The position numbers were made by a program, and so were the translations under genes. The notes beneath the pieces are model-generated. The model did not search any database and had not been told where the DNA came from. It saw only the letters and a program-made list of their open reading frames with translations. This document shows, one piece after another, positions 669 to 43,657 of a stretch of DNA of 64,000 nt; position 1 is the first letter of the stretch; each line of letters opens with the position of its first letter. Source of the stretch: Candidatus Gastranaerophilales bacterium (lineage in GTDB: Bacteria > Cyanobacteriota > Vampirovibrionia > Gastranaerophilales > Gastranaerophilaceae); the NCBI GenBank assembly GCA_947857085.1, contig CANUDF010000001.1:3841-67840 (forward strand). The letters run 5' to 3'.

Positions 669-1846
669 ATGAAAAAGACTTCTACAAAAGCGGTTCAGAT
701 AGTTACCCCCCCCCGAATTCCCCTCCGGACGCGGTTTTTACAAGATTTAACAAATTAAAAGAAAGCATTTATAATTCTAACGTTATAAATTACAAATCAG
801 GATTTACTTTATCTGAAATTCTTGTAACAATAACAATTATTGGTATTGTTGCAGTAATGGTAATTCCAACTTTGGTAAAGGAATACCAGCAAAAAGCCTG
901 GGATGAAAGTTCACGAGTATTTGAAATAAAACTTGGACAAGCTCTTCAAGTAATGAATACAGAACAAACACTCGCAGGTTATACAAAGACTGAAGATTTT
1001 GTGAATGAACTAAACAAGCATTTTAAAATAACAAAAATATGTCATGCTGATGACTTAAGAGAGTGTTTTGAAGATACAGTATTTTGGGGCGGAGGCGAGG
1101 TTGAACCCGCGGAGGTTGATATGACCTCAATAAAAACATCTAAAAATTTCGGACTTGAAGATTGGGATACAGAAGTTATAGGGGTTCAGTTTTCAAATGG
1201 AACAAATGGAGTTATTGCGTATAATCCGGAGTGCATCCAGAACCCTTACAGCAATCAAATAATAAATATATCTAAAGAAGGGAAGTTAGGTACTAGCTGC
1301 ATTGCATTATTATATGATACTACTGCATATAAAATGCCGAACGAAAGTGGAAAAGACCTGAGAAGCATTAACATTTTAAAACTTTCTAAAACTTGCTCTT
1401 TTGAATTAAACGGCAAATGTTACAGCCAGGCTTTTTTGCCCTCTCCTATGAGCAAAGCTGAATGCGAAAGAGAAAAAGATAGACTAGGTATCAAAGAATG
1501 CAATGATAATGATGATGTTTGGGCTGGAGCAGTCAAAAAATGCGGCGGGGTTAATAAAATGCCTACAATGGCAGAAATAAATGATTTAGCTAAGTATCTT
1601 TATAACACGAATAATATTAGCGAAGACTTTAGTGTAATAGATAAAAATCTAAAATTAGATACCGAAAAAGCTGCGGAATTAGGTTTTTCTCTAGATTCAA
1701 GCAGTTTTAATAATTATTTTGCAGTTTGGTCCGGAGAAGAATTAAATGATGAAACCACAACTGGCAGGGCATTTACTGACACTCAGACAAATGCAGCATA
1801 TGGATACAGGGGCCAAGCAAGCTGGCAGGCAATATGTATGGAGTAA
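669..1846 (+). CDS. Prepilin-type N-terminal cleavage/methylation domain protein, frame interrupted at a C9 tract (uninterrupted body 857..1846)
   Basis: GGAGG (655..659) lies 9 nt before ATG 669. The frame of 857..1846 is open back to 665 and encodes KSG/FTLSEILVTITIIGIVAVMVIPTL (G-1, E+5), but it has no start codon of its own. The ATG 669 frame joins it only if C9 were C10. Confidence 0.6.
706..714 (+). repeat. Poly-C homopolymer (9 C) inside the 5' leader of a pilin-like gene
   Basis: Counted directly: ttaCCCCCCCCCgaattc. Such a tract is unexpected in AT-rich DNA. Confidence 0.9.
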
Positions 1847-2772: not shown

Positions 2773-3869
2773 TATTTATCCATGCCTGTACCATAGAATA
2801 CGCCGCGAATCATCTGTTTTAACTCGTTTTTGTTACTTGAAGCAAGCAATGCCGCATCTTCTGTAATGTCCCCACGCTGCAACATGCTGTATAAGGACAT
2901 ATTCAAAGTCAACATATTGTTGAAAGACCCCTTTTTAACTAAATCGTAAATTTGTTCCATTTCATTTTTTTCAATAAAATCTTTTATGGTTGAAGTAACC
3001 ACAAGAATTTCACAAGCAGGACGTCTTCCATTACCGCTTGCAAGCGGAACAAGTTTTTGAGAAACTGTCCCCCTTAAAATTTCTGCAAGCTGATTTCTCA
3101 CAAAAGGCCTATCAGCAGGCGTGTACATATTAATAATCCTATTTACAGTCTGAATTGCATTATTTGTATGAATGGTTGCAAAAACAAGGTGACCCGTCTC
3201 AGCAGCCTTTAATGCATTACTTATTGTATCCCTGTCTCTGATTTCACCAATAAAGATTACATCAGGATCCTGTCTCAAAGCATATTTTATACCATCAGAA
3301 TAAGAGGGAGTATCTACTAATAATTGTCGCTGCGATATAATGGATTTTTTATTATTAAAAATAAATTCAACCGGATCTTCAATTGTAATAATATGTTTTT
3401 GATAATTTGAATTAATATGGTCAAGTATAGAAGCCATTGTAGTTGACTTACCTGACCCGGTAGGTCCTGTTACCAGCACCAGTCCGTTATCCATCTCAGT
3501 AAATTGATTTATTGCATCAGGAAGATACAACTCCGGAAGCTTTTTAATAGCATAAGGAATAGTTCTTATAACAACTGCATATTTTGCAAGCTGCCTTGAC
3601 ACATTTACCCTGAACCTGGCAATACCTTTTATTTCATATGCAAAATCAACATCAAGCATTGACGAAATATTATCTTTTAAATGCAAAGGAGCTAATTCCA
3701 TACAGGCATTGAACACATCATTATCTGTAAGCGGAGGCATGTCGATTTTAATTATCCTGCCGTCACGTCTTACTGATGGATGTTCTCCGACATGAATATG
3801 TACATCAGAAGCCCCTATAGATACAGCCTGTTTCAAAAAGTCAACAATATTGAAAATCTTTTCTCCCAT
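2772..3869 (-). CDS. pilT: Type IV pilus twitching-motility ATPase PilT
   Basis: 365 aa. It has Walker A GPTGSGKSTT, the IITIEDPVEF motif, and GHLVFATIHTN (PilT/GspE family signatures). Confidence 0.85.
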   Translation of the reverse strand: MGEKIFNIVDFLKQAVSIGASDVHIHVGEHPSVRRDGRIIKIDMPPLTDNDVFNACMELAPLHLKDNISSMLDVDFAYEIKGIARFRVNVSRQLAKYAVVIRTIPYAIKKLPELYLPDAINQFTEMDNGLVLVTGPTGSGKSTTMASILDHINSNYQKHIITIEDPVEFIFNNKKSIISQRQLLVDTPSYSDGIKYALRQDPDVIFIGEIRDRDTISNALKAAETGHLVFATIHTNNAIQTVNRIINMYTPADRPFVRNQLAEILRGTVSQKLVPLASGNGRRPACEILVVTSTIKDFIEKNEMEQIYDLVKKGSFNNMLTLNMSLYSMLQRGDITEDAALLASSNKNELKQMIRGVFYGTGMDK

Positions 3870-42669: not shown

Positions 42670-42682
42670 TAAGTTAATCATA

Positions 42683-42716
42683 AAAAAGACTGTTCCCAAG
42701 GGAACAGTCTTTTTTA
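42683..42716. terminator. Bidirectional rho-independent terminator
   Basis: The sequence aaaaagactgttcc-caag-ggaacagtctttttt lies between convergent genes. Confidence 0.7.
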
Positions 42717-42717
42717 T

Positions 42718-43592
42718 CTAAAATATTTTTATTGGTTTTTTAACAATCATTCTACAGTCTTTCACCATATCTTTGCAAATGTCATCCTGTAAAATTGCCC
42801 CGCAGTATTTTTGGCTCTTAATATAGCCGCTAATACATGCAGCACGATGATAATCAGCATCGGTTATTAGTAATCTTTCTTCTCGATTTTCACCGCTATA
42901 ATAATCATAAAGTACATTTACACTTATAAGGTTATTATAATTTTTCCCATCTTGTGCACCTTTTTTATATCCGGTTATGATTTTCCCTGATTTTAACTTG
43001 TAAAAAGGATAAACATCATCCCACAGTTTTCCTGCACCCAAAGTTCCATTTATGTCAATATATAATATATATCCTGTTCTATCATCTTCATTTTCTGCAT
43101 CTGATAAGTCATCTATTTCTCCATAATCGGAACCTATATATAGTTTTAAGCCATTAGTAAAAACTATATGCGGATTTATATCAAAAACACCTGATTTTGC
43201 ATATGCAGTAACTGTATTCGGTGTAATATTACAATTCTTTTCTGAAATATTAAAATGTTCAGAAATTTGTTCACAAAGCTTCATTGCCGAATCTGCTGCA
43301 ATTTTTTGGCTGTCTGTTTGACTTTCACAACTTTTATCCTGATTTTCAATATCTAAAATGCATTCTTCATACATGCTGTCAAATAAAATATCCTGTGAAA
43401 TATTTTTCACAATGTTATATCCAATATAATAGGCTGTAGAATCAATTTTTTTAATTTTACTTTGAGTTATTGGAAAAGTAATGCATAAAATTAACGAAAT
43501 AACTGTAAATACAGTTACAAGCTCGCCTAGTGTAAATGCTTGCTGAGAGTGGTTTGTATACTGCCCCCCCCCCTGTGACCTAATTTGTTCAT
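42718..43592 (-). CDS. Prepilin-type protein, frame interrupted at a G10 tract (uninterrupted body 42718..43410/43563)
   Basis: AAAGGAG lies 5 nt before ATG 43592 (MNKLGHRGGG). The body frame is open from 43563 and encodes QQA/FTLGELVTVFTVISLIL with E+5. The two frames join only if G10 were G11. The YIDINGTLG block resembles the other pilin-like ORFs. Confidence 0.6.
43564..43573 (-). repeat. Poly-G (minus strand) homopolymer, 10 nt, in the 5' leader of a pilin-like gene
   Basis: Counted directly on the plus strand: ctgCCCCCCCCCCtgtgacc. Confidence 0.9.
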
Positions 43593-43657
43593 ATTAACTC
43601 CTTTTGGTAATATAATATCATATTTCATAATAATTGACAATAAATTAATATGAACAT

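Follow-up and report, generated by a model that had tools for sequence, protein, structure and literature searches.

A candidate phase-variable pilin-like gene with a G10 tract in its prepilin leader, and a large family of similarly built paralogues, in an uncultured gut Melainabacteria genome

Introduction

Phase variation by slippery repeats is a textbook mechanism for a few pathogens, whereas to our knowledge it has hardly been documented in commensal, uncultured gut lineages. In Helicobacter pylori, CT repeats in the signal-sequence region of outer-membrane protein genes switch a paralogous adhesin family; compared with the system described below, these repeats are dinucleotides, the signal is of the Sec type, and about five genes are concerned. 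The opa genes of Neisseria share several features with the present locus, as they form a multigene family of surface proteins in which each copy carries a slippage-prone repeat in the coding part of the cleaved leader, the copies switch ON and OFF independently, and the repeat number leaves the mature protein unaffected (PMC3960869). A further likeness is found in pilC1 and pilC2 of Neisseria, where, according to the account of Jonsson et al. (1991) given in PMC5953494, an in-frame G/C homopolymer close to the 5′ end turns a pilus-associated protein ON or OFF by frameshifting. The published numbers of repeat loci reach 54 in gonococci and range from 36 to 82 in N. lactamica (PMC5953494). Likewise, Campylobacter jejuni possesses a genome-wide contingency set in a small AT-rich gut genome, and its poly-G/C tracts resemble those reported here in being mostly G on the coding strand, with a modal length of 9 followed by 10; in Campylobacter, 53% of the contingency tracts have length 9 and 26% have length 10 (PMC6321876).

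Here, we describe a pilin-like gene of an uncultured gut member of the Melainabacteria, from the family Gastranaerophilaceae, which carries a homopolymeric tract between its start codon and its predicted prepilin cleavage site, and we compare it with the other tract-bearing genes of the same genome (a draft of 1.75 Mb in 88 contigs; GC content, 34.3%) and with its orthologues. A full-text literature search found no paper describing such a switch in Melainabacteria, and a termite-gut study lists just single pilA, pilB, pilC, pilD, and pilT genes.

Results

A prepilin body out of frame with its leader

The gene lies on the minus strand of the window, by which we mean the whole 64-kb stretch of DNA that was analyzed. 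A candidate promoter-like site (43612..43640), consisting of TTGTCA and TATTAT separated by 17 nt with an extended TG and matching the consensus at 10 of 12 positions, is found downstream of the hairpin and T-run that terminate the upstream pyruvate:ferredoxin oxidoreductase (PFOR) gene. It is followed by the Shine–Dalgarno sequence AAAGGAG (43598..43604), a 5-nt spacer, and the leader start codon ATG (43590..43592), and in the Shine–Dalgarno region the string AGGAGTTAATATGAA is common to this gene and a tract-free paralogue on contig C44. Beginning in leader codon 7 (AGG), an uninterrupted G10 homopolymer (43564..43573; C10 on the plus strand) lies inside the reading frame and is the proposed slippage switch. 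As assembled, the leader frame reads MNKLGHRGGG, continues after the tract with SIQTTLSKHLH, and stops at 43529..43527, which gives an OFF-state product of 21 codons, MNKLGHRGGGSIQTTLSKHLH, plus the stop (43527..43592).

In the body frame, the remainder of the leader reads QYTNHSQQA (43537..43563) and places Ala at position −1 of the predicted prepilin cleavage site. The FTLGE motif, with Phe at +1 and Glu at +5, and the hydrophobic N-terminal segment FTLGELVTVFTVISLILCITFPIT come next (43465..43536), so that the N terminus, QQA/FTLGELVTVFTVISLILCITFP, displays the prepilin signal pattern of leader, Ala, Phe+1 to Glu+5, and hydrophobic stretch. The predicted mature protein has 272 residues (42718..43536, including the stop) and comprises a helix, a low-confidence linker, and a Cys-rich alpha/beta domain ending in CRMIVKKPIKIF. 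From 43563 to 42718, the body frame is open over 281 codons (281 aa; stop at 42720..42718). By our own estimate, with about 0.07 stops per codon in DNA of 34% GC, an open frame of this length would arise with a probability of about 5e-10, and it is no chance event. Beyond the stop, a terminator-like hairpin, AGACTGTTCCC-TT-GGGAACAGTCT, is followed by a T-run (42681..42710); our hairpin scan missed it because the loop has just 2 nt.

A tract of G11 fuses leader and body into a 291-aa preprotein, and a tract of G8 fuses them into one of 290 aa. An alternative start codon that would make G10 productive was also considered and was rejected: ATG, GTG, and TTG are all absent from this leader between the tract and the cleavage site with its FTLGE motif, and the longest ORFs crossing the tract amount to 37 aa at G10 and 60 aa at G9. 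A preliminary description of this DNA had read the minus-strand AAAGGAG, the 5-nt spacer, the ATG at 43592, MNKLGHRGGG, the G10 tract, and an out-of-frame QQA/FTLGELVTVF body, all of which were recovered when the sequence was read again. It had also stated that the body is reached only with 11 G; G11 does join the two frames, but the word "only" has to be dropped, as the loss of two bases (G8) joins them too.

Runs of at least nine G or C occur exactly twice in the window, at 706..714 and at 43564..43573, and correspond to three overlapping 9-mer matches where 0.03 were expected from shuffles. The first run belongs to a sister locus on the plus strand (669..1846), which has a Shine–Dalgarno sequence, an ATG at 669, a C9 tract at 706..714, and a prepilin body, KSG/FTLSEILV, that needs C10. 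The genome-wide run count upheld the earlier statement that the window has no other tract of this length, and the two further points made about this pair, namely that both tracts sit in pilin-like leaders with the same +1 offset (C9 needs C10, G10 needs G11) and that the common design marks both genes as candidate phase-variable loci, were likewise supported. A PilT/PilB-type T2SSE ATPase (366-aa open frame) is encoded on the minus strand at about 3030..3836 of the window (C1:6870-7676), 1.2 kb downstream of the sister locus.

The predicted protein and the pilus machinery

No Pfam family matched the window protein, for which the PF07963 cut-off was not reached, and in a search of curated HMMs TIGR02532 was not listed, while ComGC scored 17.4 bits against a cut-off of 75. 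Because the N terminus stays below the TIGR02532 and PF07963 cut-offs, the gene is called pilin-like on account of its motif, its predicted helix, and its homology to paralogues; to this extent the initial naming of the product as a pilin-like prepilin can be kept, whereas the curated models and the Ala at −1 speak for a more guarded use of it. Paralogues of the main family, including the sister gene at 669..1846, do pass TIGR02532 (18.6–22.1 vs a cut-off of 16.3), and one of them matches DUF6613. Ala, as opposed to Gly, is also found at −1 in 15 of the 69 tract-bearing paralogues.

The AlphaFold2 model, built from an alignment of 28 homologues, predicts a long helix (residues 12–58) that is joined by a disordered linker to an alpha/beta domain modelled with confidence (pLDDT 80.4, pTM 0.74). 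A Foldseek search of this model against the PDB returned no significant neighbor (best E 0.3), and the best PDB match of the sister gene model, a Bdellovibrio fibre-tip domain, was not significant either (E 0.19). Each of the 22 genomes in the genus encodes homologues of the body, and these share 35 invariant columns, including Cys residues. Many of them have an extra central module of about 150–200 aa, and the same module terminates the sister gene. The paralogue on C44 is intact and tract-free, is 42% identical to the window gene, and has a 10-aa leader; the leader of the window gene is about 27 nt longer, and the tract falls within the added stretch.

These observations bear on the possibility that the gene is a decaying pseudogene, that is, a redundant paralogue in which the frameshift has become fixed and which will never be expressed again. 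The presence of an intact paralogue on C44 would fit such a course. However, the 281-codon body contains no stop, all invariant Cys and motif columns of the family are retained, the promoter-like site, the Shine–Dalgarno sequence, the ATG, and the terminator-like hairpin are intact, and the sole defect is located in an uninterrupted tract of mutable length.

With respect to the machinery, the genome encodes one A24 prepilin peptidase, with an above-cut-off match to PF01478 at C42:2804-3196, and four T2SSE (PF00437) ATPases, one of which is that at about 3030..3836 of the window. From what is known of the family, it would be expected that the leader is cleaved, the new N terminus methylated, and the protein displayed on the surface.

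G/C tracts across the genome

The lengths of G/C runs in the genome are bimodally distributed, with 31 runs of length 6, 4 of 7, 6 of 8, 45 of 9, 28 of 10, 13 of 11, 2 of 12, and 1 of 15. Thus, 95 tracts of at least 8 nt were observed where fewer than one was expected, and for runs of at least 9 about 0.5 were expected from base composition. The profile has 47% of tracts at G9 and 29% at G10, close to that of Campylobacter. When the check was extended from the window to the whole genome, as had been proposed at the outset, prepilin-type genes were found to carry about 82 of the 95 tracts in their 5′ leaders. This number comprises 69 pilin-like genes with a tract of at least 7 (70 were first listed, and the false positive C37:8722 was dropped) and about 12 further tracts in leaders of the same types that are truncated at contig ends. 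In the 69 genes, the tract lies 9–41 nt past an ATG with a strong Shine–Dalgarno sequence (typically AAGGAGG), and the FTLxE motif with its hydrophobic segment follows 4–89 codons past the tract. The coding-strand base is G in 56 genes, which encodes a Gly run, and C in 13, which encodes a Pro run.

A motif scan identified 96 pilin-like N termini in all, whose mature parts account for 69 kb or 3.9% of the genome; about 20 of these genes have short ordinary leaders (e.g. MKKGFTLAE) and are without a tract. The C-terminal parts group into two large clusters, with 34 and 18 genes, and leave a few singletons, among them the window gene; the sister gene belongs to the 18-member cluster B.

The leaders show several further peculiarities. 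Seven tract genes (C4:6182, C18:18088, C35:19549, C48:10668, C56:287, C61:216, and C73:6258) have a second Shine–Dalgarno-like sequence and ATG 3–9 codons before the FTLAE site, which gives a short leader such as MRKFG/FTLAE. Six of the seven are of the MGVNTHYHYFASRGGGG leader class, the exception being C56:287 with the leader MISKNNRMKIRGGG and a weak Shine–Dalgarno-like match, and six of the seven need −1; in these genes the tract ORF may be an upstream ORF rather than a simple frame switch. In long leaders, which extend up to about 90 aa past the tract, translated modules such as CHCEGAKRLSQSHYR and SLRGGRMSDVAIASLSNSDDNAITTQTTFARDDK recur (C2:44896, C25:11731, C38:12183, C46:621, C53:3503, C54:11521, C65:7909, and C66:664), and these modules look like dispersed repeat elements that are read through in frame. 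In six genes (C1:71533, C18:18088, C36:15327, C72:6142, C84:286, and C71:161), the cleavage motif is duplicated, GFTLAEVAEPRQHIRHWSKG being followed by a second GFTLAEVLITL, so that the leader may offer a decoy or a second place for processing.

The 69 scorable pilin-like genes occupy all three phases, with 12 in frame (at G8, G9, G10, G11, and G15), 45 needing +1, and 12 needing −1. Less than one-third of the genes are ON (p = 0.005), and +1 and −1 are not equally frequent among the OFF genes (p = 8e-6); in most genes, a tract of 9 was observed where ON takes 10. To account for this strong, one-sided bias toward OFF, something further has to be assumed, be it a mutational attractor at G9–10 or selection against ON; an attractor at 9–10 combined with genes built such that the resting length is OFF is a plausible arrangement.

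As the G10 at 43564..43573 is the consensus of one draft metagenome-assembled genome, a sequencing or assembly artefact deserves attention, according to which the true tract is a uniform G11, the gene is intact, and homopolymers of about 10 bases were miscalled by one base. Systematic under-calling would put most genes off by the same +1, as is the case for 45 of 69, and the assembler did struggle at these places, with 18 of the 95 tracts lying at most 150 nt from a contig end. On the other hand, eight non-pilin genes with G/C tracts of 9–11 are in frame as assembled, and 12 pilin-like genes are in frame and another 12 off in the opposite direction, which argues against systematic under-calling. 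Moreover, Campylobacter tracts of such length were reported to be accurate on Illumina (PMC6321876).

The same frame states were considered with regard to recoding at the RNA level, in which RNA polymerase slippage, or −1 ribosomal frameshifting on G GGG GGG, would yield an in-frame fraction from the sequence as it stands. The out-of-frame length would then be the working state, with all paralogues expressed at a low level at once. Most genes do stand at one base below ON and could be rescued by one added base or a −1 shift, and runs of 9–10 identical bases are known slippage substrates; however, these are mainly A/T runs, G:C-rich hybrids slip poorly, and 12 genes need the opposite shift. Furthermore, no frameshift-stimulating RNA structure of note was detected downstream of the window tract (z −1.35).

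Candidate contingency genes of a more conventional kind form a second set, made up of non-pilin genes with internal G/C tracts of 9–12, eight of which are in frame and two of which need +1 (C7:31513, C7:37750, C45:31, C49:12581, C62:3334, C63:1779, C33:2949, C43:6952, C41:13081, and C49:9807). By eye, the in-frame set includes glycosyltransferase-, formyltransferase-, FdtA/WxcM-, and LicD-like genes, a 1190-aa autotransporter, and three others. Such classes are phase-variable in Campylobacter, Haemophilus, and Neisseria.

Tract polymorphism in orthologues and spread within the family

The same arrangement of Shine–Dalgarno sequence, ATG, and tract, with unrelated leader codons, is present in several orthologues of the window gene. 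The tract is a G9 needing +1 in the orthologues from genomes G002 and G013 and a G7A in that from G032, and among published genomes the design was found in the OFF state in MEL.A1 (complete genome, CP017245; G9) and in Clostridium sp. CAG:967 (G10). The tract is nevertheless sporadic in this orthologue group, as many members, in addition to the C44 paralogue, are without it.

Within species, the orthologous tracts differ in length. The G013 orthologue has G9 in the species representative and in three ENA samples, G10 in others, and an in-frame G7 allele in others again, all with identical flanks; G10 yields the 501-aa full-length protein P0011. Public assemblies of the G032 orthologue contain G7A, G9, and G10 between identical flanks, and the G7A allele is the commonest form (16 contigs), its interrupted tract looking locked OFF. 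Protein clusters at 90% identity show the matching length classes, among them full-length, alternative-start, and truncated forms: one cluster comprises a 501-aa (ON) form on 5 contigs and a 466-aa form with an internal start on 12, and in a second the forms are of 427 aa (8 contigs), 433 aa (7 contigs), and 367 or 386 aa (25 contigs). Populations of a single species thus have orthologous tracts of different lengths, and alleles that are in frame are common among them, which is the signature of a hypermutable switch.

Two further features of these orthologues were observed. In that of G032 (L006 and L022–L024), a second ATG overlaps the Shine–Dalgarno sequence in another frame (ATGTTACGAAGGAGG...) and represents a start without a Shine–Dalgarno sequence of its own; if this start is used, G9 as well as G10 would give a full-length open frame (433/436-aa vs 427/430-aa forms). 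P0036 (506 aa), found on two contigs, has the same body as P0011 (501 aa) behind a wholly different, tract-free leader, MQKKGMKRVVISRPETGDEVNLSLFRRG/FTLGE, which suggests that leaders may be exchanged between paralogues by recombination.

The polymorphism bears on all three alternatives. Independent orthologue assemblies give different tract lengths between identical flanks, each length being recovered from several samples, which is hard to reconcile with a miscalled homopolymer; together with the tracts found in all phases, it leaves the artefact very improbable. For RNA-level recoding, which is not needed to account for the data but may contribute leakiness, the in-frame DNA alleles common in natural orthologue samples indicate that the out-of-frame state is not conserved, and both this mechanism and the constant low expression of all paralogues that it implies appear highly unlikely. 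The commonest allele of the sister species, with its interrupted tract on 16 contigs that looks locked OFF, does speak for a pseudogene; given the preserved body and signals of the window gene, we nonetheless regard decay as an improbable account of it. The reading that is left as the favored one is a phase-variable gene whose tract changes length by slippage.

Other copies from the source species were not encountered: an exact look-up of the neighboring PFOR protein returned no other strain, scans of genomes and metagenome contigs with the body protein found no further copy, and the protein database held just the source genome's own 218-aa call for this gene. As the source species is not represented elsewhere, variation of the tract at the exact locus is inferred from the orthologues.

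Words of nine G are found in all genomes of the genus; in the sample taken from the family, 98 of the 120 genomes and 52 of the 60 genera contain them, and they are hardly present in the other families of the order; these pattern counts are of overlapping matches and not of tracts. A profile of the N-terminal 110 residues of the mature proteins detected the pilin-like family in 59 of 60 genera. The number of first-look candidates, which is a loose proxy for family size, with the scored matches limited to 39, ranges from 10 to 190 per genome and correlates with the nine-G counts (Spearman rho 0.65, p 7e-16). Two genomes, G079 and G132, have 65 and 156 first-look candidates, respectively, and zero runs of nine G/C, for which a different switch, a real loss, or a pipeline that drops or collapses homopolymers could be the cause.

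Discussion

Our analysis suggests that the locus is probably a contingency gene, in which a pilin-like protein is subject to phase variation through slipped-strand changes in a simple sequence. With its own promoter-like site, Shine–Dalgarno sequence, and ATG, the gene would be transcribed alone, and the ribosome would meet the G10 tract seven codons in. Slipped-strand mispairing at replication would change the length of the tract, such that translation would end after about 20 codons at G10 or G9 (OFF), whereas the 291- or 290-aa preprotein would be made at G11 or G8 (ON). Mutability cannot be put down to missing mismatch repair on the evidence of MutS, of which the genome contains two homologues. 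The ON product would carry a class-III-type (prepilin) signal, and the A24 peptidase would presumably cut after Ala19; because this cut removes the Gly run, tract length would never alter the mature protein. The latter, with its predicted long N-terminal helix and Cys-rich globular domain, could then enter a type IV pilus or pseudopilus machine and reach the surface.

The same switch appears to operate on about 80 paralogous pilin-like genes, most of which are OFF in this assembly, and the number of surface combinations within one population could therefore be very large. Selection is likely to come from host immunity, from phage, and from shifts in the binding targets available in the gut. 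On a broader scale, we think it somewhat more probable than the opposite that the phasome of gut Gastranaerophilaceae consists almost wholly of one family, with some 50–150 leader-gated type-IV-pilin-like genes per genome of 1.5–2.3 Mb, most of them OFF. If so, the putative adhesive pilus subunits shown by each cell would be a small sample, drawn at random from a very large repertoire. The system would then be the largest single-family repeat-switch system known to us and, for the lineage that is sister to the Cyanobacteria, the first contingency-locus system to be described.

About 4% of a 1.75-Mb genome and about 85% of its 95 hypermutable tracts appear to be devoted to one pilin-like family. 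If the switching is real, Melainabacteria would vary their surface stochastically on a large scale, which bears on their persistence at low abundance in the gut, on the pressure from IgA and phage, and on the targets bound by their pili. There are also practical consequences. Gene callers truncate or miss most such genes, the window gene having been recorded as a mere fragment of 218 aa; the tracts coincide with assembly breaks, as seen for those close to contig ends; and tract lengths in metagenomes could report selection in vivo.

Compared with type IV pilins and pseudopilins (TIGR02532/PF07963, including modular pilins with grafted adhesive modules), the family described here has in common the leader, the G/A before the cleavage site, the F-T-L-x-E motif, and the hydrophobic helix, as well as a predicted globular domain on a long helix and a genome encoding a prepilin peptidase and assembly ATPases. 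However, the window gene falls short of the curated cut-offs, its leader of 19 aa is long, as are those of the paralogues (about 100 aa at most), the mature proteins are large (220–500 aa), and no solved pilin matched the models.

The known repeat-switch systems differ in other respects. The repeats of Neisseria opa are CTCTT pentamers, and there are about 4–12 copies, whereas homopolymers and about 80 copies are found here (PMC3960869); in addition, Opa is a beta-barrel outer-membrane protein of a proteobacterial pathogen, made with a Sec signal peptide, as opposed to a pilin-like protein with a class III prepilin leader in an uncultured gut member of the Melainabacteria. PilC of Neisseria is a Sec-exported tip or adhesin factor without an FTLxE N terminus and is encoded by two loci that do not form a family. 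The resemblance to C. jejuni extends to the non-pilin tract genes, which by eye look like surface-glycan enzymes and an autotransporter. However, C. jejuni genomes contain 20 loci at the median and 81 at most, in one isolate (PMC6321876), compared with about 95 tracts here; the C. jejuni loci are spread over glycan, flagellar-modification, and restriction genes, whereas about 85% of the tracts here gate one family. Campylobacter is also without MutS/MutL-type repair, unlike the source genome with its MutS homologues. Our best reading is that of a classical slipped-strand contingency switch, which here would sit in a prepilin leader that can be cleaved off and would recur throughout a single gene family. 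Overall, the system is distinguished from those known by its class III prepilin leader, its approximately 95 tracts, its target of almost exclusively one family, and its occurrence in the non-photosynthetic sister lineage of the Cyanobacteria.
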